This document shows, in pieces, positions 5,800 to 47,397 of a DNA stretch of 48,743 nt; within the stretch, counting starts at the first letter, position 1; each line of letters starts with the position of its first letter. The notes below the pieces were generated by a model, which worked only from the letters and a program-made list of their open reading frames with translations, made no database searches and was not told where the DNA came from. Source of the stretch: Clostridia bacterium (lineage in GTDB: Bacteria > Bacillota > Clostridia > Christensenellales > CAG-314); assembly GCA_017505015.1 (NCBI GenBank), contig JAFVQA010000068.1:1-48743 (forward strand), read 5' to 3'. The translations under genes were made by a program, and so were the position numbers.

Positions 5800-5862
5800 T
5801 AACTTTGTTGATATGGTAGTTTTATATGGATAAAATGCAACCAAAACAACATAATTAAAAAA

Positions 5863-5960
5863 CACGCAAAATCACATGCCACAGCCACGGCAGATATCTG
5901 CCAAGTGCTTGGCAATGTATTGCGAGTGGATTAACAGCACAATTTATCGTTTTTTAATGA
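5863..5960 (-). repeat. palindrome-cluster repeat P, copy 1
   Basis: GGCAGATATCTGCC (5889-5902), CCAAGTGCTTGG (5901-5912), GCAATGTATTGC (5912-5923). Aligns with 11113-11210 (about 78 percent over a 65-nt core, hand count). Confidence 0.65.
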
Positions 5961-6026
5961 AAAAATTAAAATACAAAAAGGCTTTGTTAAAGCCAAAAAA
6001 ACGGAGTATTTAATATAGTGACTTAA

Positions 6027-8609: not shown

Positions 8610-10574
<1,965 letters not shown>

Positions 10575-11112
10575 TTATATTGAAAATTATTTTTTCTGAT
10601 TTTAAAGCACAGCAAACTGACTTAAAAATGACAGTTGCTTTGCATTTTTTGATTGCTTTTTAAAAATTTTTTCTAAAAATAATAAATTATTTTTAACGGG
10701 GTCGCAATCTACCCCACTATGCAATGCTATTATATCACAATTATACCTTTTTTGGCTCGTATTTTTGCCACATAGTGCCAAAAAATTTTAAAACTTTTTT
10801 ATATATGCCCTTTTTAGCCCTAAATTTGCCCTATAAACGAAAAACAATGGCACGTCACCACAAAATAACGGAAAACTTTTCGTTTTTGTTTTTGTCAATA
10901 TGCTTTTTTTGTTTTGTGTGTTGCAAAAACCACACGAAAAATCATGCCTGAAAAAACCTTATATTTAAAAAATCCTTAATTTTTAATATTGCAACTTTTT
11001 TTAAAAAAACGCAACGTAATGAAGTTTCACCCGGTTAATATAAGCGAAAAAATGACTAATAAAAAGTTACTATTTGATATGTATAAAATTAGTCAAAACA
11101 AAAAATAATAAA

Positions 11113-11210
11113 AGCACAAAAACACCTGTCACAAGCATGGCATATATCTGCCATATGCTTGGCAATGCATTGCAAATGGCTTTTCAGCACTTTTTGTCAA
11201 TTTTTATCAA
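11113..11210 (-). repeat. palindrome-cluster repeat P, copy 2
   Basis: GGCATATATCTGCC (11139-11152) and GCAATGCATTGC (11162-11173). Same order and orientation as copy 1, again just downstream (on the - strand) of a terminator. Confidence 0.65.
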
Positions 11211-11286
11211 AAAAATAAAAACGTAAAAAATTTAAATTTTTCAATCAAAAAAGGGAAGAAATATCTCCCCCCCTCTTTATTTTAAT

Positions 11287-12536: not shown

Positions 12537-13643
12537 TCATACCATGCGAACAGGCAAAATGAGGTAAAGATAATCTTCTTTATCGCAAGGAGTGATAACA
12601 CAAGGGTTAACAGGAGTGTTAAGGTTTATTTTGATAAACTCGTCGTCAATAACACGTGTGCAGTCAAGAAGATATCTTGAGTTGAAAGCAATTGTCATAT
12701 CTTTACCCACGAGATTTATTGCAACGATTTCGTGAAGGTTTGCACCATCGTCGCTGTTAGAAACAATGTGCAAAGTTTCTTCTTTAATGTCAAGTTTAAC
12801 GAGGTTGTTCTTTTCGCCACGAGAAAGAATTGCAGCTCTGTCAAGACTTGATTTAAACTGATCTTTGTTGATGATAACGTTTGTATCAAAATCGTTAGGA
12901 ATGATTTGTTTGTAATTGATAAAATCACCACTCAACAAACGGGTCATAACACAACTGTGACCAAGATCTACCATCAAAAAGTTGTTTTCTATTTTTACCT
13001 GAACGATATCTTCGCTGTCATCAAGAAATTTGCTGAGTTCTGAAAGACTGCGAGCAGGAACGATAACCTTAATTTTTTCGTCAACTTTGTTTTCAAGTGG
13101 TTTTTTAACCAAAGCCAGACGATAACCGTCAAGTGCAACCGAACTTATTGTAAAATCTTCTGCCTCAAAAAGACAACCTTTGAGAGTTGGTCTTGCATCG
13201 TCAGTTGAAACAGAAAAAATTGTTTTAGAAATAAGGTCTTTAAACTCTTTAGACACAATGCTGAAATATTTGCAGTCAGACAACTTTTCAATTTCAGGAT
13301 ATTCTTCTACAGAAAAGCATTGTTTTTCAATTTCGCCATCTGTATATTTAAGTTTTAAACGAAGGTTGTCGTCAAGAGAAAGTTCGATCTGTTCGTTAGT
13401 GAGCATTTTTACCATGTCGGCAAAAAATCTGCCAGGAACAACAACTTCACCTTCAAGCAAAACTTCTGCATTTATTTTCTTTTCAATAGCAAGCTCGAGG
13501 TCTGTTGCAAACAACACAAGACTGTCGTTTTTTGCAGTAATTTTAATACCCTCTAAAATAGGAGTTACGTTTTTGCTGTTGAGCGCTTTTGTAACCTTAA
13601 GCACTGCATCGCTGAGTTCGAGACCTTGACAAATAACTTTCAT
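12537..13643 (-). CDS. dnaN: DNA polymerase III beta sliding clamp
   Basis: ORF track. SD AAGAGGA. Typical length (368 aa) and three-domain clamp sequence, ending LILPVRM. Confidence 0.95.
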   Translation of the reverse strand: MKVICQGLELSDAVLKVTKALNSKNVTPILEGIKITAKNDSLVLFATDLELAIEKKINAEVLLEGEVVVPGRFFADMVKMLTNEQIELSLDDNLRLKLKYTDGEIEKQCFSVEEYPEIEKLSDCKYFSIVSKEFKDLISKTIFSVSTDDARPTLKGCLFEAEDFTISSVALDGYRLALVKKPLENKVDEKIKVIVPARSLSELSKFLDDSEDIVQVKIENNFLMVDLGHSCVMTRLLSGDFINYKQIIPNDFDTNVIINKDQFKSSLDRAAILSRGEKNNLVKLDIKEETLHIVSNSDDGANLHEIVAINLVGKDMTIAFNSRYLLDCTRVIDDEFIKINLNTPVNPCVITPCDKEDYLYLILPVRMV

Positions 13644-14063
13644 AAAATATCCTCTTTTATAAACAAATTTTTATTTTGATTTGTTTTTGTTAAAACAATT
13701 TATAGTTTTTATAACAAAAAATGACTTTTTTGACGAAAAACATAAAAAAATAAAATTTTTTTTGAGTTAGTTTATATATCAAAAAAGCAGTTGCAGTAGT
13801 AGGGTGTGTTAAAATGTGGATAGATTTTTTAAAAAAACGCAACCTTCACTGACTAAATACATTATAAACGATTTGGCAGAAAATGGCAACACAATATATA
13901 GTTTTTAAGGCCTTTTTAAAAACAAAAATGAACTGTTGAAAACCACCTTTTTTTGTGTTGATAAGGTTGTGTTTTTTGTGTGGAAAAAGGTGTGAAAAAG
14001 TGTGTTTTAACGCAAAAAACTGCCGTTTAAAAAACTTGCTTTTATTTTTTTTTCGTGTATAAT
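13644..14063. other. candidate oriC (A/T-rich unwinding region plus DnaA-box cluster) at the coding-strand switch
   Basis: All genes to the left are on the - strand and all genes to the right on the + strand. 13650-13795 is almost pure A/T. DnaA-box-like 9-mers cluster at 13815-13999. Confidence 0.5.
13815..13999. promoter_or_regulatory. DnaA-box-like sites (8/9 matches to TGTGGATAA)
   Basis: TGTGGATAG 13815-13823, TGTTGATAA 13956-13964, TGTGGAAAA 13979-13987, and a weaker TGTGAAAAA 13991-13999. Confidence 0.45.
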
Positions 14064-14378
14064 GGCACTTACAAAGTGCCCAAAAGTTGGCTCTGTATGG
14101 AGTGCAGTTGTTTTACAAAACTTTTATGGTGCTAATAAGTTGCATAAGACAAATAAAACTGACTTTATATAAAGCTTGTTTACAAAAACTTTGTAGAGTT
14201 TTTGTCGCACTTTTATAAAGTGCGTGTTTAACCCACGAAAAATTTTTAGCATTGCAAATGATAAAAGTTTTTCGTTCTGCTAAAAATAAAAATAAATATA
14301 ACAAACGAAACTTTATACATAATGAAACAATATAACAAGCCATACCGTTGCACACTTGTTAAGTGTGCCCACGGAGTG
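14064..14378 (+). repeat. composite intergenic element E, copy E1 (upstream of dnaA)
   Basis: Starts with GGCACTTACAAAGTGCC and ends with GCACACTTGTTAAGTGTGC-CCACGGAGTG. 14081-14144 matches 20589-20652 at 61/64. 14217-14277 matches the reverse complement of 15924-15984 at 56/61 (hand counts). Confidence 0.8.
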
Positions 14379-14418
14379 AAAAATTAAAAAAGTGATTAAT
14401 TAAAAAGCGGTAAAAAAT

Positions 14419-15765
14419 ATGGACGTAAGAGAACTTTGGCAAAAAATGCTTGATGAACTGGAAACGATGATTCCGGCTTTGGGTTTTGACACTCTCATGG
14501 AAACGACGGCACCAGTAAACGTAACAGAAAACAAACTTATACTTTGCACAAACAGCGAAATTAGCAAAACTTTGGTACAAAAAAGGTTTTTGATACATAT
14601 AAGAGAAGCCATGCAAATGGTTTCGCCTATGCTTGACGACGTTGTTGTTATTACAGAAGACCAGAAAGAATATTATAAAACTAAAGAAGATCAAGACATT
14701 AAACCACTTGGCAACGTGTGGGAAGATGCAAACTTTATTAAAAAATATACTTTTGACAACTTTGTAGTAGGAAGCAGCAACGAATTTGTTGCAGCAGCGT
14801 CACAAGCTGTTTCAGAAGCACCGGGCAAAAAGTTTAATCCGTTGTTTATATATGGTGGTGTTGGTCTTGGCAAAACTCACTTGCTCAACGCCATTGGAAA
14901 CAAAATAACAAGCGATCAGCCACAGTTGAAAACTCTTTACGTTAGTTGCGAAAAATTTACAAACGAACTTATCGAGGCTATCAGGGACACTAAAAACCCA
15001 AGCGATGCCAAAAAAACTTTCCGTCAAAAATATCGCAACTGCGACGTTTTGATGATTGACGATATTCAGTTTATATCAAAAACAGACGCAACTCAGGAAG
15101 AATTGTTTCATACTTTCAACGACCTTTATAATGCAGAAAAGCAAATTATCATAAGCAGTGACCGCCCACCGAGAGAAATTCAACACCTCGAAGACAGGCT
15201 GCGCACAAGATTTGCATGGGGTCTTATTGCAGACATTAAACCACCTGATCTTGAAACACGAATTGCAATTTTGCAAAGAAAGGCAAACGAACAAGGCGTT
15301 GCCGTGCAGGACAGCATTCTTAAACGAATTGCAGAGTCTGTTCAGGACAACATTCGTGATATGGAAGGTCTTCTTACACGCGTTATCAGCTATGCTTCAC
15401 TTACAAACCAAAAAGAAATTGACTTGAACATTCTTAACGAAGCGTTGAAAGACTATACTGACGACCAAAAAGAAATGATTTCTGCCGAAACTATTATGGA
15501 CGTTGTTTGCGAGTATTTCAACGTGAGCAAAGCAGACCTTATTGGCAAAAAGAAAAACAAAGAAATTGTTGAGCCACGACAAATATGCATGTATCTCATC
15601 ACCGAATTTTTGACAACCCCTCTCAAAGAAATTGGCAATATTTTTGGAGGAAGAGACCACACAACAGTTATTTTTGCACGTGACAAAATTGCAGAACAAT
15701 GCAACATGGAAACACGCATTGCTCTTTACGTTAAAGACCTTAAAGCATTGTTGCTCAAGAAGTAA
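14419..15765 (+). CDS. dnaA: chromosomal replication initiator protein DnaA
   Basis: ORF track. AAA+ Walker A GGVGLGKTHLLNAIG, Walker B VLMIDDIQF, sensor SDRPP, domain IV DHTTVIFARDKI. Weak SD. Confidence 0.95.
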   Translation: MDVRELWQKMLDELETMIPALGFDTLMETTAPVNVTENKLILCTNSEISKTLVQKRFLIHIREAMQMVSPMLDDVVVITEDQKEYYKTKEDQDIKPLGNVWEDANFIKKYTFDNFVVGSSNEFVAAASQAVSEAPGKKFNPLFIYGGVGLGKTHLLNAIGNKITSDQPQLKTLYVSCEKFTNELIEAIRDTKNPSDAKKTFRQKYRNCDVLMIDDIQFISKTDATQEELFHTFNDLYNAEKQIIISSDRPPREIQHLEDRLRTRFAWGLIADIKPPDLETRIAILQRKANEQGVAVQDSILKRIAESVQDNIRDMEGLLTRVISYASLTNQKEIDLNILNEALKDYTDDQKEMISAETIMDVVCEYFNVSKADLIGKKKNKEIVEPRQICMYLITEFLTTPLKEIGNIFGGRDHTTVIFARDKIAEQCNMETRIALYVKDLKALLLKK

Positions 15766-15772
15766 GATTTAT

Positions 15773-15810
15773 AGCACTATGAAAGTAAAAACTTTTGTAG
15801 TGCTTTTTTT
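15773..15810 (+). terminator. intrinsic terminator after dnaA
   Basis: AGCACTA-18 nt-TAGTGCT followed by T7. Confidence 0.6.
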
Positions 15811-15814
15811 ATGC

Positions 15815-16224
15815 CACTCTGTGGGGCAGGGTTTCACAAACCCTGCACAAACAGTATAGCTTATTAATTTATTTTGTTGGTTTTATAATTTTTTGTTTTT
15901 ATATTTATTTTTAACTTTAAACGGAACTAAAAACTTTTATCATTTTTAATGTTAAAAATTTTTCGTGAGTTAAACACGCACTTTTTATGCATGCCACGAG
16001 TAGAATTTTTGTTAATGTAATATAGCAAGTGCCAATTTGTAAATAAAATTAATACGAGTAAAAGTGCGACAAAAACAGTAGTAATATCAATTTATCAGCA
16101 CTTGCTGGGTTTTATAACAAACATTTTATTCGTTGTTTTCTCTGCAAATTGTTAGCACTATAAAAGCCTTATGTTACAACTGTGCCATATACTGTGCTTA
16201 CTTTTTTGGCATTTTATAAATGCC
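15815..16224 (-). repeat. composite intergenic element E, copy E2 (inverted, downstream of dnaA)
   Basis: Begins next to dnaA with CACTCTGTGGGGC (reverse complement of the E1/E3 terminal motif). Contains the 61-nt core 15924-15984 and an inverted, diverged copy of the 64-nt block (about 16150-16200). Ends with GGCATTTTATAAATGCC (16208-16224). Confidence 0.8.
15985..16060 (+). repeat. sub-element S (76 nt) filling a palindrome loop inside E2
   Basis: E2 reads GCACTTT-[76 nt: ..CCACGAGTAGAA...ATACGAGTA]-AAAGTGCGAC. The homologous E1 site is an intact hairpin CGCACTTTTATAAAGTGCG (14206-14224). Confidence 0.7.
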
Positions 16225-16356
16225 CACTTTTTAAGTGCCTTGTGGTTGTAAAACTTTTGACCACAATATGTTGTGTTTTGGTATTTTTTGTGAAAAAAAG
16301 TATATAAAAAAGGTGAAATTATGCACATTTTTGGGGTATGCAAAAAGTTAAATTCG

Positions 16357-16385
16357 TTGACATAAACAAGATTTTACTTTATACT
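16357..16385 (+). promoter_or_regulatory. sigma-A-type promoter for rpmH operon (TTGACA-17-TATACT)
   Basis: TTGACA 16357-16362, a 17-nt spacer, TATACT 16380-16385. It lies 57 nt upstream of the rpmH ATG. Confidence 0.65.
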
Positions 16386-16441: not shown

Positions 16442-16576
16442 ATGAAAAGAACTTATCAACCTAAAAAAAGACAACGCAGCAAAGTACACGGCTTCCGTAA
16501 AAGAATGGCAAGCAAAGGTGGCAGAAACGTTCTCGCTAGAAGAAGAGCAAAAGGCAGACACCAACTCTCTGCATAA
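16442..16576 (+). CDS. rpmH: 50S ribosomal protein L34
   Basis: Below the ORF-track size cutoff. SD AGGAGAAGG. My translation is [44 protein letters not shown] (44 aa). Confidence 0.93.
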
Positions 16577-19020: not shown

Positions 19021-19156
19021 TTATTTTGTATGCCCACTGTTTTTATAGTGAGCGTATATAATAAATAACAACATTTGCTCGCAGGTGTGCAATCTGCAAA
19101 AAAACAAGCATTAAAAGAGTATAGTTAAACAATATTTATACTGAGCCATACTGTTG

Positions 19157-19173
19157 GGCACTTTTAAAGTGCC
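19157..19173 (+). repeat. CACTT/AAGTG palindrome abutting the mnmE SD
   Basis: GAGCCATACTGTTG-GGCACTTTTAAAGTGCC-GGGAGA-AAACCT-ATG. Same arrangement as upstream of gyrB. Confidence 0.7.
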
Positions 19174-20571: not shown

Positions 20572-20985
20572 CACACTTAAAAAGTGTGCAAAAGTAGGCT
20601 CTGTATGGAGTGCAGTTGTTTTATAAAACTTTTATTGTGCTAATAAGTTGCAGAAGCACGCATTCACGAGTAAAGATTTTGTAAACTATACAAAGAAAGT
20701 GTCACTGTGTAAAAGGTATCACTACGAGTAAAAAGTGTGCAAAAGTATGGCTTTACATACAGTTCAGCTGTAAAACAAAGCCTTTATGGTGCTGTCGGGT
20801 TTTGCATTATTACAAATTTTGCCACGCTTTTTTAAAGCGTGTGTTGAACGTGCAAAAAAGATTTGATATGAAATAGCAAAGATTTTTTGCTCATTAAAAA
20901 AACAAAAATAAAAATATAAAACAAAACAATATAAAAAGCAATACTGTTTGTGCAGGATTTGTGAAATCCTGCCCCACGGAGTGAT
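20572..20985 (+). repeat. composite intergenic element E, copy E3 (upstream of mnmG)
   Basis: CACACTTAAAAAGTGTG, then the 64-nt block (20589-20652), an S-filled palindrome, a diverged second block (about 20745-20800) and CACGCTTTTTTAAAGCGTG. Ends with ATACTGTTTGTGCAGGATTTGTGAAATCCTGCCCCACGGAGTG, which is almost identical to the reverse complement of 15815-15860. Confidence 0.8.
20662..20730 (+). repeat. sub-element S (about 69 nt) filling a palindrome loop inside E3
   Basis: GCACGC-[ATTCACGAGTAAAG...58-nt spacing...CTACGAGTA]-AAAAGTGTGC. Confidence 0.65.
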
Positions 20986-29751: not shown

Positions 29752-29773
29752 TTGATTTTTAAAAACAAAACAA

Positions 29774-29804
29774 AAAGCACGGATATTTTCCGTGCTTTTA
29801 TTTT
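29774..29804 (+). terminator. intrinsic terminator after ftsH (GCACGG family)
   Basis: AAGCACGG-ATATTTT-CCGTGCTT followed by TTATTTT. Confidence 0.75.
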
Positions 29805-29962
29805 GCAAAAAAAACGTCGAAAAGCCCCAGGTATAGGGGGTATTTTGCAAAGAAAAGTTTAAAAAATGGCAATATTTTTTTAAAAAATGTATTGTACAGA
29901 GAATATAAATATGATAGTATAAAAGCAACAAAAACTATGTTAAAAAAATGTCAATGTTAAGA

Positions 29963-30096
29963 CAGGTGTAAAGACACCTGCCACTTACAAACGATACCGA
30001 CCCACAAAAAAGTAAGTCAGGCCGATACCAATAAATCTGCTTTTGCAGGCTAAAAGGACACAAAATCTGCCCGACTTGTTCGTGGCAGATTTTTTT
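29963..30096 (+). ncRNA. candidate structured leader or small RNA ending in a terminator, upstream of the giant surface-protein gene
   Basis: Hairpin CAGGTG-TAAAGA-CACCTG (29963-29980). Possible long stem ACTTAC/GTAAGT. AAATCTGC occurs twice (30034, 30063). Terminator ATCTGCC-13 nt-GGCAGAT plus T6 (30065-30096). Possible promoter TTGTAC-17-TAGTAT at 29892-29920. No known riboswitch class recognised. Confidence 0.3.
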
Positions 30097-30113
30097 GATA
30101 CTTAAAAAGTATC
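30097..30113. repeat. empty palindrome GATACTTAAAAAGTATC
   Basis: Perfect 7-bp arms. An S-filled counterpart lies 85 nt downstream. Confidence 0.6.
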
Positions 30114-30188
30114 CAAATGTATGCTTGATATACAGTGTGGTTGAAACACAAAATTTTTTGCTGACAATGAGTTGTTGAGGGATACCTT

Positions 30189-30255
30189 CACGAGTAAAAC
30201 GTGTGTAAACAACGCACAGCAAGGGCTTGTTTGTTGACAAAACCACTTCGAGTTA
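30189..30255 (+). repeat. sub-element S (about 67 nt) filling a GGATACCTT/AAGTATCC palindrome
   Basis: GGATACCTT-[CACGAGTAAAACGTGTGTAAA...58-nt spacing...CTTCGAGTTA]-AAGTATCC. Confidence 0.6.
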
Positions 30256-30389
30256 AAGTATCCAATAGTATGGCTCAGTGTGGTTGCAACATTAAAAAAC
30301 AAGCCCCTGTGGTGCTGACAGGTTGCAGAAATTGCAACCGAATATCAAAAAAGAAAAAAACTTGCACAACAGTTGCAAAGAGGTGCTAT

Positions 30390-33300
30390 ATGAAAAAACT
30401 TTTTAAAAAATTTAATCTTTCAATAATTTCACTGGTGTTTGCACTGACACTTTGTTTTGGTGGCATTGCTTTGTCAGCCCCAAAAAAGGTTGATGCAGCA
30501 GAATACGTAGCGCAAGCAAACAGCACGCAATACGTCACTTTGCAAGAGGCTTTTGCCAGCGCCACAGACGGCGTGCAGACAAACATAAAACTGCTTGCCG
30601 ACGTAACGACAACCGAAATTATTCAAATCGCAGCAGAAAAAAACGTGGTGTTTAATCTTAACGGTTTTAACCTTATAAACCCAAACGATGGTGTTTTTAG
30701 AATTTTAGGCACGTTTTGCATTAAAGGCAACGGCTCTGTCAAAGGCGCGTCAGAAGGTGCAACAATCAGCACAATAAACGTTGGTCAAACAGGCACGCTT
30801 GTTCTTGAGGGTGGCACAATTACATCACTGGGCGGAACAGGAAACAGATGCATTTATTCACAGGGCACTGTTACAATAAAGGGTGGCAGTATAGAAAACG
30901 GTTCGGCAGAGAATGGCGGTGGCATCTATAGCAGTGGCACACTCACAATAAACGGTGGCACAATATCAAACAACAGAGCAACCGGAGGTGGTGGCATTTT
31001 TTCACAGGGCACACTCACTATAAATGGTGGCACAATTTCAAACAACACTGCAGACGATGGCGGTGGCATTTATTCTACTGGTGGCACACTCACTATAAGC
31101 GATGGCACAATTTCAAATAACACTGCAAACAATGGCGGTGGCATTTATGCCGTCGGCTATTGCACAGTTGATATAACAAATGGCGCTATCGAACAAAATG
31201 ATGCAGTCAACGATGGCGGTGGCATCTTTTTTGCAAAAGGCAGACTCAAAATGACGGGTGGCACAATTTTGAGCAACACTGCAGGGGGCAATGGTGGTGG
31301 CATTTTTAACGTAAGTGACAACAGCAACACAAACCTAGTAGAAATAGCCGGTGGGTTTATAGAGTCAAACACAGCAGAGGGCAATGGCGGTGGCATTTTT
31401 AACTCCATTGACACATCCAAAGGAAATCTGAGCATAAGTGGCAGTGCAATGATAACAAAAAACCAAAGCAACAATGGTGCCGGCATTTACAACAATGGTG
31501 GTGTCTTTAGTGCGGTTGGTGGCACTGTTTCGCAAAACGTTGCAAAAAGTGGTGGCGGTGGCATCTTTAACAATTATGGCACTCTTGACGTGACAAGAAT
31601 CACAATATCAGGCAACAGTGCAACAAATGGTGGTGGCATTTTTGCTAACAATGGCACTATCAACATCAAATACAACACTTTTATCTCACAAAACACAGCA
31701 AGGTTTGGTGGTGGCGTTTACAGCGATTCATGCGCTGTCACTGTTACTGGTGCAACAATAACACAAAACACAGCGACAGACGAAGGCGGTGGCATTTATA
31801 TTTATATTTATGCAAATGTAGCAAAAACCGTTGATATACAAAAAACAACAATCAGCTCTAACAAAGCAACAAGCCTGGGTGGTGGCATTCATGTCAATTC
31901 GGGCATAGTTAATATAGGCAGTGACGTTTTGATCACAACAAACAGTGCAGAATATGGCGGTGGCATTTTTCTTGAAAAAAATAGCACAATTGCTATAAAC
32001 GGAGCAACAGTATCAGAAAACACTGCAAAATATCAGGGTGGTGGTATTTCTTGCGGTGGAAAAACAACAATTGAAAATGCCACAATCAGCAAAAACAAAA
32101 GTGTGGATGGTGCAGGCATTTTCAGTGCCGGCGAAGTTGAAATAAACAGCACTACTTTTGAAGAAAACATTGCAACAAGTGATGGCGGTGGCGTTTATGC
32201 CAATATAGACATACTCAAACTCAACAGCTGTTTGATATCAAAAAACACTGCATACGACGGTGCAGGCATTTTTAACAAATGCACGCTGACTATTGATGGT
32301 GGCGAAATAACAGACAACATTGCAAAAAACTATGGCGGTGGTGTTTTGAATGACGAGACAGGCACGCTCACTGTGGACAGTGCAACAATATCAGACAACA
32401 CTGCAAGTATTGGTGGTGGCATTTATAACCATGAAGCAGGCATTCTCACTGTTGATGGTGGTGAAATAACACAAAACAAAGCAACTACGGCTGCCGGTGG
32501 CATTTATAACAAAGGCACAGTTGAAATTTTGACAGGACTTGTTTCACAAAACAAAGAAACTAGATATGGCGGTGGCATTTATAACGAAGGCACGTTCACT
32601 GTGACAGGTGGAACAATTTCAGGCAACGAAGCAACAGAATTTGGCGGAGGTGTTTATAATAGTGGCGACCTTACTGTTGAGGGTGCAACAATTTCACAAA
32701 ACACTGCAACGTATAATGGCGGTGGCATTTATAACGAAAGCACACTCACTGTGTCAGGCAGTTCAATTTTAAATAACAGTGCTGTTGATGGTGGTGGCAT
32801 TTATAACTATGGAGCAGGCATTCTCATTGTTGATGATGGTGAAATTTCAGGCAACGAAGCAACGTATGATGGTGGTGGCATTTATAACTATGGCACGGTT
32901 GAAATTTTGACAGGACTTGTTTCACAAAACAGAGTAACCAGATATGGTGGTGGAATTTATAACGCTCCTGACAGAACTGTAACGATATACAACGAAGTAA
33001 CAATTTCAAACAACAGCGCACAATATGGCGGTGGCATTTATAATAGTGGCGAACTTTCTGTTGAGGGTGCAACAATTTCACAAAACACTGCAACGTATAA
33101 TGGCGGTGGCATTTATAACTCTGACACAGTTGAAATTTTTACAGGATATGTTTCACAAAACACTGCAACGTATGATGGCGGTGGCATTTATAACTTTGGC
33201 ACAGTTGAAATTTTGACAGGATCTGTTTCACAAAACACTGCAATGTCTAGTGGTGGTGGTATTTATAACCAAGGTACAGTTACTGTGTCTGGTGGTGAAA

Positions 33301-35702
33301 TTTCAGGCAACGTAGCAACGTATGATGGCGGTGGCGTTTTTAACAGTAGTGGCACGCTCGATGTAACTGGTGGCACAATTTCAAACAACACTGCAACGTC
33401 TAATGGCGGTGGTGTTTATAACCATAGCGAACTCACTGTTGATGGTGGCATCATTTTGCAAAACGTTGCAGAGGCTGGTGGTGGCATTTATAACTATGGA
33501 ACAACAACTCTGGACTCTGGCACAAAGATAAGCAAAAACGAAAGCTCGCTTTCTGGCGGTGGCATTTATAACGATGGCAAAACAACTGTTGATGGTGGTG
33601 AAATAACAGAAAACGTTGCAACTGATGATGGCGGTGGCATTTATAATGATAATGGCGAACTTGCTGTTGAGGGTGTAACAATTTCAAACAACAGTGCACA
33701 ATATGGCGGTGGCATTTATAACAGCACTGGCAGCACTGTAACTGCTGAAAACACAACAGTTTCGCAAAACAGTGTAACGTATGATGGCGGTGGTATTAAA
33801 AATAACGGCACACTCACTTTTGCAAGTGGAACAATTTCAAACAACGTTGCAACAAGAGAAGGTGGTGGCATTTATAACTCTGGCAATAGCATTGCAACTG
33901 TTGAAGACGCAACAATTTCCGACAACAGTGCAGAATATGGCGGTGGCATTTATATCAACAGCAGCAGCACAATCCAACTCAAAGGAGCAACAATTTCAGA
34001 CAACAGTGCATTAAGCGGTGGTGGCATTTATATCAACAGCAACAGCACAATCCAACTCAAAGGAGCAACAATTTTGCAAAACGTTGCAACAGGTGACGGT
34101 GGTGGTATTTATAACAATGGCGAACTCACTGTTGATGGTGGTGAAATAGCCGACAATACTGCACAATTGGGTGGCGGCATTTTTAACTTTAGCAAAGCAA
34201 CTGTCAGCAATGTTTCGATTAAAAACAACGTTGCAAACTTTGGTGCTGACGTTTATAACTTTGCAAATGATACGTTTGAGGCAAGTGACAGCACTTTGCA
34301 ACAGGTGAACAACATGGGCAAGTTCACTTTGGATGGTGGCAGTGTTGAAAGTTTGTTTGTTGAACACGAAAACAGCACTGCAGATATCACAGGACAAGTA
34401 TCAACGGTGTATTTTGTAAATATCCCAGTTCAACCAGTTGTTCTGGACGGTGCAGATTTGCAAAACGAAATAAAGGTGGTTGTTAACGTGAGTGACATTG
34501 CCGATATTGAAGACATTGTTTTGTTTGAAAACTTTGTTTGCAACGACGACCTGTTTGTGTTGCACAAAGGCACTGTTGACAACGCACAACCTGTAAATGA
34601 CTTTTTCTTGATGAAAGACAGTCAAAACAAAGTTGCAGTTACACTTATTGACATTGCGAGAATCAGCGTTGATACACAACCAACAAAAACAACTTATGTT
34701 TACTATGAACCGTTTGAAAAAGACGGCATGGTTGTTTCTGCAACGTATAACAACGGCAAAACAGAGTTGGTTGACATCAACGACGTGGAGATTTTATATC
34801 AGACTTATAGCGACGGTTTCCACCCGACAGACACGGGCGTGACTTTGCAGTTTGTAAATCTTAAAAACAAAAAAATCACTTGCACGGTTGACCTTGTTGT
34901 TGAAAAAGAACAAAATGAAATTTCAGACTTTTTTGCTGGCTGGACTTATGGCGAAAAACCTGGATATGGCTTTGCTGCAGATTGGGTTGAAGAATATGAC
35001 CTTTCTTTTGCAACAAGCCAAAACGGTGTGTATTCAGGCACTGTTCCAACAAATGCAGGCACTTATTGGATGAAAATTTTGGTTCACGAAAGCGAGTTTT
35101 ATTATTCGGCAGAACAAGCCTTTGAGTTTGAAATTGAAAAGGCAGTTGTTTCAAAACCAAAACTCGACAACCAAGCTGTTGTGTATAACGGACAAAAACA
35201 AATTGCAACAATTGAGCAAAGCGATTTGTATACAGCAACTAACGATGGTGGCACAAACGCAGGTGTTTATGTTGTGACATATTCACTCAATGACAAAGCA
35301 AACTACAACTGGTCAAATGGCAATGCAGAAGACCTCTCGTTTGAGTTTGCAATTAAAAAGGCAACTGTAACAATAGGCAACGTTTCAATCACAGGCAACG
35401 TAAGGGGCGAAGATTTGCAGGTTAGTGCAACAAGCAATTTTGGCGATATTCAATATAGCTATGCCAAAAAAGGTGAAAGCAACTTTACAAGCACAAAACC
35501 AACAAAACCTGGCGAATATATCGCAAAAATGACAGTTGCCGGAACAAACAACTTTGACGGTGCAGAAAAAACAGTTGCGTTTGTTATCGAGTCAAAACTG
35601 TTTGCAGGCGAAATAACTGGCATTGTGGCAGGCAGTGTTGCCGTTGCCGGTGGCATTGGCGGTGGCATTTGGTTTTTGATAAAAAAACGCAAACGCATTT
35701 AA
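30390..35702 (+). CDS. giant secreted, membrane-anchored surface protein (1770 aa). About 44 Pmp/POMP-type GGGIYN parallel beta-helix repeats, then Ig-like and MBG-like domains, with a C-terminal TM anchor
   Basis: ORF 30201..35702 trimmed to MKKLFKKFNLSIISLVFALTLCFGGIALSAPKKVDAAEY (signal peptide) behind SD GAGGTG. I counted 44 units of ..NTA..GGGIYN.GTLTV.GG.IS.N. Tail contains TKTTYVYYEPFEKDGMVVSATYNNGK (Ig-like) and YNGQKQ...GTNAGVYVVTY (MBG-like). Ends in GIVAGSVAVAGGIGGGIWFLIKKRKRI, with no LPXTG. Confidence 0.85.
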   Translation: MKKLFKKFNLSIISLVFALTLCFGGIALSAPKKVDAAEYVAQANSTQYVTLQEAFASATDGVQTNIKLLADVTTTEIIQIAAEKNVVFNLNGFNLINPNDGVFRILGTFCIKGNGSVKGASEGATISTINVGQTGTLVLEGGTITSLGGTGNRCIYSQGTVTIKGGSIENGSAENGGGIYSSGTLTINGGTISNNRATGGGGIFSQGTLTINGGTISNNTADDGGGIYSTGGTLTISDGTISNNTANNGGGIYAVGYCTVDITNGAIEQNDAVNDGGGIFFAKGRLKMTGGTILSNTAGGNGGGIFNVSDNSNTNLVEIAGGFIESNTAEGNGGGIFNSIDTSKGNLSISGSAMITKNQSNNGAGIYNNGGVFSAVGGTVSQNVAKSGGGGIFNNYGTLDVTRITISGNSATNGGGIFANNGTINIKYNTFISQNTARFGGGVYSDSCAVTVTGATITQNTATDEGGGIYIYIYANVAKTVDIQKTTISSNKATSLGGGIHVNSGIVNIGSDVLITTNSAEYGGGIFLEKNSTIAINGATVSENTAKYQGGGISCGGKTTIENATISKNKSVDGAGIFSAGEVEINSTTFEENIATSDGGGVYANIDILKLNSCLISKNTAYDGAGIFNKCTLTIDGGEITDNIAKNYGGGVLNDETGTLTVDSATISDNTASIGGGIYNHEAGILTVDGGEITQNKATTAAGGIYNKGTVEILTGLVSQNKETRYGGGIYNEGTFTVTGGTISGNEATEFGGGVYNSGDLTVEGATISQNTATYNGGGIYNESTLTVSGSSILNNSAVDGGGIYNYGAGILIVDDGEISGNEATYDGGGIYNYGTVEILTGLVSQNRVTRYGGGIYNAPDRTVTIYNEVTISNNSAQYGGGIYNSGELSVEGATISQNTATYNGGGIYNSDTVEIFTGYVSQNTATYDGGGIYNFGTVEILTGSVSQNTAMSSGGGIYNQGTVTVSGGEISGNVATYDGGGVFNSSGTLDVTGGTISNNTATSNGGGVYNHSELTVDGGIILQNVAEAGGGIYNYGTTTLDSGTKISKNESSLSGGGIYNDGKTTVDGGEITENVATDDGGGIYNDNGELAVEGVTISNNSAQYGGGIYNSTGSTVTAENTTVSQNSVTYDGGGIKNNGTLTFASGTISNNVATREGGGIYNSGNSIATVEDATISDNSAEYGGGIYINSSSTIQLKGATISDNSALSGGGIYINSNSTIQLKGATILQNVATGDGGGIYNNGELTVDGGEIADNTAQLGGGIFNFSKATVSNVSIKNNVANFGADVYNFANDTFEASDSTLQQVNNMGKFTLDGGSVESLFVEHENSTADITGQVSTVYFVNIPVQPVVLDGADLQNEIKVVVNVSDIADIEDIVLFENFVCNDDLFVLHKGTVDNAQPVNDFFLMKDSQNKVAVTLIDIARISVDTQPTKTTYVYYEPFEKDGMVVSATYNNGKTELVDINDVEILYQTYSDGFHPTDTGVTLQFVNLKNKKITCTVDLVVEKEQNEISDFFAGWTYGEKPGYGFAADWVEEYDLSFATSQNGVYSGTVPTNAGTYWMKILVHESEFYYSAEQAFEFEIEKAVVSKPKLDNQAVVYNGQKQIATIEQSDLYTATNDGGTNAGVYVVTYSLNDKANYNWSNGNAEDLSFEFAIKKATVTIGNVSITGNVRGEDLQVSATSNFGDIQYSYAKKGESNFTSTKPTKPGEYIAKMTVAGTNNFDGAEKTVAFVIESKLFAGEITGIVAGSVAVAGGIGGGIWFLIKKRKRI

Positions 35703-35722
35703 CAACAACTAAACAAAATATA

Positions 35723-35751
35723 AAAGCACGGAAAAACTCCGTGCTTTTTTG
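35723..35751 (+). terminator. intrinsic terminator (GCACGG family)
   Basis: AGCACGG-AAAAACT-CCGTGCT followed by T6. Confidence 0.8.
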
Positions 35752-35784
35752 TTTGCAAAAGTTTGTTTAACTTTGCTTTTACTA

Positions 35785-35813
35785 TTGAAAACTTTGTCGA
35801 ATTTTTATATAAT
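35785..35813 (+). promoter_or_regulatory. sigma-A-type promoter for xpt-pbuX (TTGAAA-17-TATAAT)
   Basis: TTGAAA 35785-35790, a 17-nt spacer, TATAAT 35808-35813. This leaves only about 30 nt of leader. Confidence 0.6.
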
Positions 35814-38454: not shown

Positions 38455-39507
38455 ATGCAAAACGAAAAATCAAAAATCAAAACACACAGACTTTTGTTTT
38501 ACCTTGTTTTTTTGGGTATAACGGTGGTTTCTATCATTTTGTATGACCATATTTTTGGCGAAGAGTCATGGTTTAATCAGGCTGTTTCGGCAAACGACGG
38601 CGTAAACATGTTGTTTGGGCTTGTGCCTTCTGTTATAAAAACGGTGCAGATTTTAACCATTGCGTGGACGCTCAGCATCATTGCCAGATTTTGCATAAGG
38701 CAGGTTATGCGCAAAAACAAACGCCACGTGACTATCGTTAAAATGATGAACAGCTTTTTGAGATATATCATTGCAATAGTTGCAGTTTTGCTTGTGCTTT
38801 CTGCATGGGGTGTTGACACAGGTGCTCTCGTTGCCTCTGCCGGAATTTTGGGTATCGTTGTTGGTCTTGGCGCACAAAGCCTTATTGCAGATATCATTGC
38901 AGGCATTTTTATTGTGTTTGAAAGGGTTTATCAGGTTGGCGACTACGTTGTTGTTGACGGCTGGCGTGGCCGTGTTGACGAAATTGGCATTCGCACCACA
39001 AAAATAGTTGACGTTGGTGGCAACGTTAAGGTTGTTAACAACAGCATGATTACAACGGTTATCAACCAGACCAAAGAACTTTCGCTTGCAAGGTCAATCG
39101 TTTCGGTCAACTATGGTGAGTCAATTCAAAACATCGAGCTTATTATCGAAAAAAACATAGACACAATCAAACAAAACGTTCCTCAAATTGTAGAAGGGCC
39201 TTTTTACAAGGGCATTACAAACCTTGGTTCGTCAACTATGGAATTGTTGTTTTTTGCAAAATGTCACGAAGAAGATATCTATACCGTTCAACGTGGCATG
39301 AACAGAGAAATTAAAATTATGTTCGAAAAAAACAACCTTGCTTTGCCATATCAGCAGGTGGTTGTCAACCAGCCGGAAGACAAACAAAAAACACCGCTCA
39401 CTGCCGAGCAGGAAGAAAGCGCATTGAAGTTTGTGAAGAGCCAGCGTATGTCTTCAAAACCAATCGACCAGGCGCAAACACCCGAGCACGAAGAAGATAT
39501 TTTTTAA
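38455..39507 (+). CDS. MscS-family mechanosensitive channel
   Basis: ORF track. Pore helix and beta domain GAQSLIADIIAGIFIVFERVYQVGDYVVVDGWRGRVDEIGIRTTKI. Confidence 0.85.
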   Translation: MQNEKSKIKTHRLLFYLVFLGITVVSIILYDHIFGEESWFNQAVSANDGVNMLFGLVPSVIKTVQILTIAWTLSIIARFCIRQVMRKNKRHVTIVKMMNSFLRYIIAIVAVLLVLSAWGVDTGALVASAGILGIVVGLGAQSLIADIIAGIFIVFERVYQVGDYVVVDGWRGRVDEIGIRTTKIVDVGGNVKVVNNSMITTVINQTKELSLARSIVSVNYGESIQNIELIIEKNIDTIKQNVPQIVEGPFYKGITNLGSSTMELLFFAKCHEEDIYTVQRGMNREIKIMFEKNNLALPYQQVVVNQPEDKQKTPLTAEQEESALKFVKSQRMSSKPIDQAQTPEHEEDIF

Positions 39508-39519
39508 CAAAACAGAACT

Positions 39520-39547
39520 AAAAGCACGAATTTTTCGTGCTTTTTTG
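39520..39547 (+). terminator. intrinsic terminator (GCACG family)
   Basis: AAAGCACGAA-TTT-TTCGTGCTTT followed by T-run. Confidence 0.8.
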
Positions 39548-39592
39548 TTGCAAAAATTTTTGTTGTTTTGCCTTTTATTTTTAAAATAGCTA

Positions 39593-39621: not shown

Positions 39622-39635
39622 GCAACCAACAATAA

Positions 39636-39718
39636 ATACAGGGGAGCTATAAAAAGCTGAGAGGAAGTTTTGCTTCGACCCTTTTACCTGATGCGGATAA
39701 TGCCGTCGTAGGAAGTCA
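39636..39718 (+). promoter_or_regulatory. TPP riboswitch 1 (THI element aptamer)
   Basis: GGGGAGC...GCTGAGAGGAAG...CGACCCTTTTACCTGATGCGGATAATGCCGTCGTAGGAAG matches the conserved THI-box core. Confidence 0.85.
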
Positions 39719-39735
39719 TAACTGGGACTATTGTA

Positions 39736-39764: not shown

Positions 39765-39775
39765 ATGCTTTTAAC

Positions 39776-39858
39776 AACACAGGGGAGCTTGCTTTGCAGG
39801 CTGAGAGGAAGTTTTTCGACCCTTTATCTGACGTGGATAATGCCACCGTAGAGAGTTT
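39776..39858 (+). promoter_or_regulatory. TPP riboswitch 2 (THI element aptamer)
   Basis: GGGGAGC...GGCTGAGAGGAAG...CGACCCTTTATCTGACGTGGATAATGCCACCGTAGAGAG. Confidence 0.85.
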
Positions 39859-39875
39859 TGTTTTTGCTTTTTTAC

Positions 39876-44953: not shown

Positions 44954-44991
44954 AAAGCAACACGCATATAACAATGCTGTTTGCAAAAAAT

Positions 44992-45019
44992 AAAAAGCAC
45001 GGAAATCCCGTGCTTTTTT
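44992..45019 (+). terminator. intrinsic terminator (GCACGG family)
   Basis: AAAGCACGG-AAAT-CCCGTGCTTT followed by T-run. Confidence 0.8.
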
Positions 45020-45104
45020 GTTGCAAAAAACAACCAACTTTTTATCTAAATTATTTGGATAGGGTGATGAAACGTTTTTTTAAAAAATAAATTTGCTATA
45101 TCAT

Positions 45105-46392: not shown

Positions 46393-47397
46393 ATGATTAA
46401 AAAACTTGTTAAAATTGCAATAAAAACCTTTGCAATAATAATTGTTGTGGCTATTGTTGCCGTGCTTGGCTTTATGCTTGCTGAACCACTTATTTACAAC
46501 GATTTTTACAGCCGTGACAGTCAAAAAGAATTTGCAACACCAGGTGCAGGCGACGATTTCATTCAGCAGGGCTTTTGCTATGCAGGCAACGACGTTATTC
46601 TTGCAAGTGGATATATGAAAGGCAAAAAACCAAGCAGAATATATATCGTTAAAGGCACGAATTATGACGACAGAACAACCACGTACGTTCAGCTTAAAGA
46701 CGAAAAGGGCAAATACACAACAAACCACGCAGGTGGCGTTTCTGTTTTTAAAGACAAGGTATACGTGTGCAACAGCGAAGGTGACCCGTCTTCTGTTTTG
46801 ATATATTCTCTCAGCGAAATTCTTTCTGCAAACGAAGGTGACGACGTTGAGGCAAAACAAAACGTGCCAGTGCACACAAACGCATCTTTTTGCCACGTAG
46901 AAAACGGTGTGCTTTACGTTGGCGAGTTTTATATGGAAAACAAATACAGCACAGACGACAGCCACAAAATAACAACTCCTGCAGGCGACAAAAACAATGC
47001 AATGGTATTTGGCTATCTTCTCGACGGTGATGGTGATATCTATGCCGATGCACCAATTGGCGCATTCAGCATAACAGACAAAATTCAGGGCATGACTTTT
47101 GCAAACGGCAAAATCGTGTTGTCAAGCAGTTATGGCCTTGCAACCTCAAAACTTTACGTATACGACGTGCAAACGGCAAAAAACCAACCACAAAGCACAA
47201 CAATGGTTGCAAACAAAAACGTTCCGCTCATTTGCCTTGACAGTGCAAGTCTGGTTGACACAATTTCTGCACCACCAATGGCAGAAGAAATGGTTTATCT
47301 CAACGGCAGACTGCTGGTAATTGGTGAGTCTGCAAGCAACAAATATATTTTTGGCAAACTTTTGCGTGCAAAACACGTTTGGAGCATTGAACTTTAA
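46393..47397 (+). CDS. hypothetical N-terminally anchored protein (334 aa)
   Basis: ORF track. SD AAAGGAAAAA. One N-terminal TM (FAIIIVVAIVAVLGFML) followed by a beta-rich soluble domain. No family recognised. Confidence 0.5.
   Translation: MIKKLVKIAIKTFAIIIVVAIVAVLGFMLAEPLIYNDFYSRDSQKEFATPGAGDDFIQQGFCYAGNDVILASGYMKGKKPSRIYIVKGTNYDDRTTTYVQLKDEKGKYTTNHAGGVSVFKDKVYVCNSEGDPSSVLIYSLSEILSANEGDDVEAKQNVPVHTNASFCHVENGVLYVGEFYMENKYSTDDSHKITTPAGDKNNAMVFGYLLDGDGDIYADAPIGAFSITDKIQGMTFANGKIVLSSSYGLATSKLYVYDVQTAKNQPQSTTMVANKNVPLICLDSASLVDTISAPPMAEEMVYLNGRLLVIGESASNKYIFGKLLRAKHVWSIEL

Follow-up and report, generated by a model that had tools for sequence, protein, structure and literature searches.

Does a pair of inverted repeats around an essential gene mark a genetic switch, the scar of an old inversion, or something less direct? 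The question is raised by a stretch of 48,743 nucleotides (nt) from a Clostridia bacterium of the Christensenellales (assembly GCA_017505015.1, contig JAFVQA010000068.1), here called the window, in which the initiator gene dnaA lies between two copies of a repeat, E1 (14064-14378, + strand) and E2 (15813-16225, - strand), that are inverted with respect to each other. A sequence-only reading of the window had offered three explanations, namely a fixed ancestral inversion, an inversion that still occurs in the population, and a mis-assembly of a repeat-bounded segment. Only the first has survived comparison with other strains and species, and it has lost E1 and E2 as its cause, because dnaA and dnaN also diverge in relatives that lack the repeats altogether. 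The locus is very probably the product of an old, fixed rearrangement of the origin region that was later colonised by lineage-specific repeats resembling MITEs (miniature inverted-repeat transposable elements), BOX elements and bacterial interspersed mosaic elements (BIMEs), and not an inversion switch.

The dnaA segment and its inverted repeats

A map of the open reading frames (ORFs), together with Pfam assignments made on identical products, places gyrA, gyrB, recF and dnaN on the - strand, followed on the + strand by dnaA, rpmH, rnpA, yidD, yidC, jag, mnmE, mnmG, rsmG, parA and parB. Both sources agree with the earlier description of dnaA as divergent from dnaN and co-directional with rpmH. 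The dnaA gene (14419-15765, +) encodes 448 amino acids with Bac_DnaA and Bac_DnaA_C domains, while dnaN (12537-13643, -; 368 amino acids, DNA_pol3_beta domains) reads away from it. The terminator that dnaA had been said to possess was located at 15773-15804 (+), where AGCACTATGAAAG...CTTTTGTAGTGCT is followed by a T-run.

The inverted bracket around dnaA stood up to computed alignment. From end to end, E1 and the reverse complement of E2 share about 76% identical columns, with a 73-nt insertion in E2. BLAST aligned the middle part (14214-14349 against 15987-15850) at 80.6% over 139 nt (E = 1e-29) and the outer parts at 72% over 82 nt (E = 8e-6), and an ungapped repeat finder returned an inverted arm pair of 104 nt at 80%. 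Several details first read by eye are likewise present in the sequence, including 56 identical positions out of 61 between 14217-14277 and the reverse complement of 15924-15984, the ends that face dnaA (CCCACGGAGTG at 14368-14378 and CACTCTGTGGGG at 15815-15826), and the outer hairpins at 14064-14080 and 16208-16224. The copy downstream of dnaA had been rightly recognised, but its extent needed correction: strain comparison independently set its limits at 15813 and 16225, and a further hairpin of the same family lies at 16225-16239.

The proposal that the two copies form a substrate for inversion fared worse. No long identical stretches are shared, and the longest exact word common to the two arms is 18 nt. 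With so short a word, confusion of the assembler, whose k-mers are far longer, is implausible, and so is efficient homologous recombination. Arms of ~76-80% identity with a maximum exact match of 18 nt make a poor substrate for RecA, given its minimal processing segments.

Constant orientation and turnover of E2 among strains

Independent assemblies were gathered by exact-protein look-ups with DnaA, DnaN and RpmH. The junction dnaN-E1-dnaA was recovered from 16 of them and the junction dnaA-rpmH from 13, in every case oriented as in the window. Two assemblies that are 99.8-99.9% identical to the window are collinear with it and gap-free over 16-17 kb.

Clearly, the bracket itself is less constant than the gene it surrounds. 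In three strains that are 97-98% identical to the window (L221, L223 and L213), E2 (15813-16225) is exactly replaced by an unrelated stretch of 179 nt, and in assemblies of a relative at 91-96% identity (L212 and L214-L218) it is represented by a mini copy of 160 nt without 15889-16107. The orientation of dnaA is the same in the strains that lack E2 and in those with the mini copy. It follows that dnaA keeps its orientation with or without the bracket, and that E2, being absent from sister strains, is not an essential feature. E1 is kept in these assemblies, including L221, L213 and L212, directly after a conserved TTGCTT-16-TATAAT site, and across the species group it is more conserved than the neighbouring coding DNA.

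The 179-nt replacement (L221 3651-3829, L213 4827-5005 and L223 811-989) contains internal repeats, AATTTCACT three times and GTGAAGTTG twice, and has no match elsewhere in the sequences compared. On the other side of E2, whichever relative is compared, the homology block upstream of rpmH begins at the family hairpin (16225-16239); this edge could be a recombination hot spot, or it could merely be the edge of functional constraint.

Other strain differences involve the same kind of repeat. L226 carries a strain-specific repeat unit after dnaN. The unit directly follows the dnaN stop codon (L226 1925-2058) and is joined to sequence located 19 kb leftward of the window in another strain (L204 19073-19115), which reflects either a repeat-mediated rearrangement or a contig that ends in a repeat. 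Alternative alleles also occur upstream of gyrB, and one of those in L221 has an antisense repeat unit directly against the ribosome-binding site of gyrB. What looked like a 207-nt duplication upstream of this gene (L221 9141-9255) was set aside as a scaffold gap (N10) that joins two alternative alleles.

A dispersed family of modular hairpin repeats

The element had been described as a pair bracketing dnaA, and it is not specific to that gene. A census with a hidden Markov model (HMM) of the element's end core covered 62.4 kb of the source genome, in which ~13 kb beyond the window were added through protein look-ups and 10 kb to its left came from a different assembly (L204) belonging to the same strain group. 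The HMM found ~14 cores in these 62.4 kb. Besides E1 and E2, the copies include E3 (20572-20983, +), which lies between mnmE and mnmG and has two tandem 5' modules, and E4 (30094-30340, +), which also has two tandem 5' modules, lies upstream of a polymorphic membrane protein (PMP)-repeat surface-protein gene and has its stem altered to GATACTT/AAGTATC. In a mini copy of ~100 nt (826-925, +), a 5' core is joined to a 3' core. Two solo cores sit close to genes: a 3' core at 19131-19173 (+) ends at the mnmE ribosome-binding site, and a core at 10527-10557 (+) abuts the ribosome-binding site of gyrB, itself on the - strand. Three more copies lie in the left flank (L204 13042-13330, 15760-15833 and 19109-19515). 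The gene that E4 precedes (30390-35702, +) encodes a protein of 1770 amino acids that has a Big_3 domain besides many Chlam_PMP repeats, and is itself built of diverged ~75-nt units.

The architecture of the family is well defined. Each end of an element carries a core of ~30 nt, inverted, that consists of a 7-base-pair (bp) hairpin, NNNACTT-N3-AAGTNNN, followed by CAAhAGTAKGGCT. The same core occurs inverted at both ends of E1, E2, E3 and the mini copy, so that these elements have terminal inverted repeats as MITEs do; they are also multi-copy, non-coding and polymorphic for presence or absence between strains. The parts between the ends are optional. They are 5' units, one or two in number; a middle module, present or absent, that contains a long AT-rich palindrome; and a 73-nt insert in a hairpin loop, likewise present or absent. 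Constant end modules combined with variable internal ones are typical of BOX/BIME-like composites. Many units start at or just after a stop codon, and within them lies a terminator-like hairpin (AGCACTATGAAAG..CTTTTATAGTGCT) with a T-run behind it; the terminator of dnaA is of this same sequence type.

The outer stem varies among copies in a compensatory manner. Across 19 copies, the paired changes comprise GGC/GCC, CAC/GTG, GTG/CAC, GAT/ATC, CGA/TCG, CCC/GGG and AGGGTTT/AAACCCT. In all, 97.7% of cells are paired and 26 cells have changes on both sides, a level reached by 0 of 500 shuffles, with the qualification that some of the copies were first picked up by a palindrome pattern. Known operators (parS, Noc, CIRCE and others) were considered as the identity of CACTT-N-AAGTG, using what we take to be their consensus sequences, and were dropped because the stems co-vary instead of keeping their sequence.

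Within this family, E1 is a full copy with a 5', a middle and a 3' module. E2 has a 3' module at 15813-15888, a middle module at 15889-16107 with direct GGTTTTATAA repeats on both sides and the 73-nt insert at ~15986-16058, and a 5' module at 16108-16225. The two are mutually nearest in the middle module only, and even this module is present in E3 and in the left flank (L204 19111-19273). E3 is the nearest relative of the E1 5' module (92% over 83 nt) and of the E2 3' module (80% over 108 nt). Since their end modules are closer to E3, E1 and E2 are mosaic members of the family and not a matched duplicate. Because they belong to a dispersed family, the inverted bracket is best seen as a by-product of repeat colonisation, neither a switch nor the scar of dnaA turning.

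Outside the source genome, the family occurs in the species group and in relatives of 80-87% nucleotide identity (L210/L211 and L219), and is absent from the loci of 80 related GTDB species searched by BLAST with the elements and by nhmmer with the core HMM. Plasmid and phage collections gave no family match. A search of metagenome and viral contigs with a pattern for the 3' module, ATACYGTT-N12-32-CCCACRGAGTG, returned 111 + 6 matches, all of them due to chance and without similarity to the elements. Rfam gave nothing in E1, E2 or E3 at gathering score, and in E-value mode its matches were all sub-threshold (E >= 0.057, with scores well short of gathering), and not one of them covers the elements. 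The family is new and undescribed, a lineage-restricted set of composite hairpin repeats whose hosts are uncultured Clostridia (Christensenellales-like) from rumen or gut samples.

No RAYT (repetitive extragenic palindrome (REP)-associated tyrosine transposase) gene was found in the 62 kb of genome examined. An element of the IS200/IS605 kind would be expected to show a strand bias about the origin, and the copies show no such pattern in the 62 kb. Nor did the Pfam hits of the window, which covered the called genes and eight further ORFs, include recombinase, integrase or transposase domains; one called product, a protein of 334 amino acids (46393-47397), had no Pfam hit of any kind.

Age of the divergent arrangement

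The spacer between dnaN and dnaA has the appearance of a replication origin (oriC). A DnaA-box scan, a promoter scan and direct reading of the sequence assign an oriC-like spacer to 13650-14063. It has an AT-rich stretch at 13650-13790, three DnaA-box-like sites (13815-13823, 13956-13964 and 13979-13987), and promoter-like sites for both genes, that for dnaN at 13889-13861 (-) and that for dnaA, TTGCTT-16-TATAAT, at 14036-14063 (+). Cumulative GC skew is lowest at ~11-13 kb. This block is near-invariant among strains and in a relative of 91-96% identity, and is partly kept in L210, whose spacer matches window positions 13771-13906. If the origin lies in the spacer, as these features suggest, all genes on either side of it, dnaA included, would be co-directional with replication. 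Such an architecture, with dnaN and dnaA both reading away from a single origin-like spacer, is unusual, and this gene order is undescribed for Christensenellaceae or Clostridia in the literature searched. Beyond E2, rpmH (16442-16576, +) is preceded by a promoter-like site at 16357-16385 (+).

The divergent pair is also old. Among the 80 related species (L001-L080), dnaN and dnaA diverge in L001, L002, L043, L028-L031, L033, L035, L037 and L040, the closest of which are L001 and L002, with DnaA 75-76% identical; the contig of L032 has no dnaN. None of the six relatives checked (L001, L002, L043, L040, L035 and L031) has inverted repeats flanking dnaA, and in L210, at ~80% nucleotide identity, the pair diverges and the dnaA-dnaN spacer contains no E1. 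As the genes diverge in relatives without the family, and strains of the same species keep the order without E2, the repeats did not make the arrangement. The sequence-only reading had itself suggested a synteny comparison, and had named a divergent pair without flanking repeats in relatives as the outcome that would make the rearrangement old, fixed and independent of the repeats; this is the outcome that was obtained.

Three arrangements occur in the genus. The first is that of the window, recF- dnaN- dnaA+ rpmH+. The second, dnaA- dnaN+ rpmH+, is complete in L001, L002 and L043, and is consistent with L219, where dnaN+ lies directly upstream of rpmH+ and dnaA is not seen because the contig starts inside dnaN. 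The third, dnaA- dnaN+ .. recF+ rpmH+, is found in L210/L211. In every genus case with both genes on the contig, dnaA and dnaN are divergent, and the origin-like block moves with the pair. The unit that flips is the whole dnaN-oriC-dnaA cassette; dnaA alone was never seen flipped. Because the cassette occurs in either orientation relative to its neighbours, the order rpmH-dnaA-dnaN-recF-gyrB that is usual in Firmicutes is fluid in this clade.

The dnaA neighbourhood is scrambled over L001-L080 as a whole. The canonical rpmH-/dnaA+/dnaN+/recF+/gyrB+ occurs in only four loci, many others have the dnaA-dnaN block inverted beside rpmH+, and in ~30 no dnaN lies within 10 kb of dnaA.

Probable colonisation of an old cassette, and its alternatives

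Taken together, these results point to the following history. The pair dnaN<- oriC ->dnaA forms a fixed, lineage-typical cassette, with both genes reading away from the origin-like spacer, and the repeats arrived after it. E1 and E2 are two members of a modular, hairpin-rich family of small interspersed repeats that fills many intergenic spacers. E1 would have become fixed in the gap that separates the start codon of dnaA from its promoter, and E2, which varies among strains, would have been inserted later, downstream of the terminator of dnaA. A perfect -10 box immediately precedes E1, whose other end lies 41 nt before the dnaA ATG, and from this position E1 would probably be co-transcribed as a 355-nt 5' leader of dnaA.

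Several points weigh against this account. The genome-wide spread of the family is an extrapolation from 62 kb, and the population evidence comes from consensus assemblies, in which a minority inverted sub-population would escape notice. No consistent target-site duplication was seen at the element ends; only the middle module inside E2 has direct GGTTTTATAA repeats on its two sides. The 62 kb of genome examined yielded no autonomous partner element or insertion sequence (IS). For these two reasons, the term mobile element is one that we infer from copy number, polymorphism and architecture. Finally, a 119-nt piece of E2 (15958-16076), which takes in the 73-nt insert, matches a part of E1 in L212 (3967-4085) at 98% identity, in inverted orientation. 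Such a match would appear to show some past exchange between the E1 and E2 positions, and could have arisen by gene conversion, by double or successive inversions, or by independent insertion of a nested mini-element. Nothing else points to sequence having passed between the two positions.

The alternatives can be taken in the order in which they withstand this evidence. In one, the hairpin cores would be recombination hot spots that drive flips and reshuffling of the cassette, E1 would have been exapted as a leader controlling dnaA, and E2 would supply a strain-specific antisense input. The observations cited for it are that the block upstream of rpmH always starts at a family hairpin, that family fragments occur in every spacer around the cassette, and that the 119-nt piece moved between E1 and E2; it is nevertheless judged unlikely. 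In another, which has a similarly small chance of being right, E1 and E2 would be regulatory partners, E1 as a structured dnaA leader and E2 as a source of antisense RNA or a roadblock at the 3' end of dnaA. The placement of E1 behind its -10 box and its conservation beyond that of neighbouring coding DNA are in keeping with such a role, as are the folding z-scores of both elements against shuffled sequence (-4.2 for E1 and -3.3 for E2), a weak promoter-like site ahead of E2 (16294-16265, -), and the fact that small interspersed repeats can change how genes that are co-transcribed with them are expressed (PMC3049150). It sits less well with the loss or shortening of E2 in close relatives, the occurrence of the same modules beside unrelated genes, and the absence of an Rfam match.

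It is decidedly improbable that E1 and E2 mediated an original inversion of dnaA alone, out of rpmH<-|dnaA->dnaN->, and have diverged since then. Of course, inverted copies do stand exactly at both ends of the dnaA segment, and one such event would turn the canonical order into that of the window. Yet the pair diverges in relatives without the family and in L210 without E1, the two elements are mosaic members of a dispersed family in place of a matched pair, and no relative has dnaA alone in the opposite orientation.

The chance that the segment is still inverting is slimmer again. Homologous recombination between E1 and E2, or a recombinase encoded elsewhere, would in that case give dnaA a phase-variable context. 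The existence of inverted repeats speaks for this, and the 98% match between E2 of the window and E1 of L212 hints at exchange. The opposing evidence is the single orientation in 16 assemblies from different samples, arms that are ~76-80% identical with exact words of at most 18 nt, the absence of an invertase or integrase gene from the 48.7 kb, and the otherwise unchanged locus of strains that lack E2. Furthermore, an essential initiator gene, once inverted, would run head-on to replication.

Bipartite origins flank dnaA in Firmicutes, and E1 and E2 might conceivably be the halves of one, as in Bacillus subtilis or Helicobacter pylori, since they too flank dnaA; but the DnaA-box-like sites lie outside both elements (13815-13987, and a single one at 16319), E2 is dispensable and copies occur far from dnaA, which leaves this idea barely credible. 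Least of all can the bracket be put down to a short-read assembly error, for which there is next to no chance despite the metagenome-type data and the flanking repeats, because the same junctions occur in 13-16 assemblies made by different assemblers from different samples, two other assemblies are collinear and gap-free at 99.8-99.9% identity, no arm word exceeds 18 nt, and strains without E2 have the same orientation.

With the colonisation of an older cassette as the preferred account, the candidate dnaA inversion switch falls, and a striking but wrong lead is removed. The case is a caution that a census of repeats is needed before inverted repeats around a gene are taken for a switch.

Relation to known repeats and inversions

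One close likeness is to the BOX elements of Streptococcus pneumoniae (boxA-boxB(n)-boxC), which are modular, with constant ends and a variable number of internal modules. Like them, the present family is AT-rich, highly base-paired, intergenic and multi-copy, is confined to a narrow lineage and shows slow presence/absence turnover between strains. BOX elements can also be co-transcribed with adjoining genes (PMC3049150). In contrast to BOX, however, the family has ends with the specific 7-bp hairpin and the CAAhAGTAKGGCT core, and there is no sequence similarity between the two; moreover, many of its units start exactly at a stop codon and hold a terminator-like hairpin, and no candidate IS partner was identified.

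A second likeness is to MITEs such as the Correia element of Neisseria and to the REP and BIME repeats of enterobacteria. Terminal inverted cores, a lack of coding capacity, copies in 3' untranslated regions or close to promoters, and compensatory hairpins are common to all of these, and repeats of the MITE/REP/BIME type have been associated with regions of genome plasticity (PMC3184786, PMC3049150). The family departs from these types in having no visible target-site duplication and in its host, a gut or rumen bacterium of the class Clostridia that is known from metagenomes alone, and it is larger (100-430 nt) and more mosaic than REPs. With its well-defined core and its polymorphism among strains, it could serve in strain typing and in the study of how repeats shape 5' and 3' untranslated regions.

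Invertons, including fimS, hin and those of Bacteroides and Clostridioides, resemble the locus in that inverted repeats bound a segment. They have short, near-identical repeats, a dedicated serine or tyrosine recombinase, and both orientations in populations, and none of these three is present here. The cassette, for its part, recalls the origin-symmetric inversions seen as X-alignments, since it occurs in both orientations relative to recF/gyrB and rpmH and is centred on the origin. The present inversions differ from these in being very small (2.5-4 kb), in taking in the initiator genes themselves and in having recurred across many lineages of the clade.

Other features of the window and its relatives

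A second, intergenic direct repeat occurs at 5820-5979 and 11073-11229, with ~76% identity over ~150 nt. One copy lies upstream of a MatE gene (- strand) and the other in the recF-gyrB spacer, and the repeat is also present in L212, L213 and L221. A terminator-like repeat, ..AAAAGCACGG....CCGTGCTTTT.., occurs in four copies that end unrelated genes (29756-29811, 35707-35790, 39501-39586 and 44987-45030).

A thiW/thiamine-synthesis operon has two tandem thiamine pyrophosphate (TPP) riboswitch aptamers upstream of it, at 39630-39731 and 39771-39871 (+), with scores of 64.5 and 62.5 bits. When positions 1-2800 of L201, a scaffold of the same species, are compared with L200, a gene for 3-deoxy-D-arabino-heptulosonate 7-phosphate (DAHP) synthase is found linked to spoIIIA genes and not to the thiamine operon of the window, a junction that reflects either a rearrangement between strains or a difference in scaffolding. 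The spoIIIA genes on L201 suggest that the organism forms spores.

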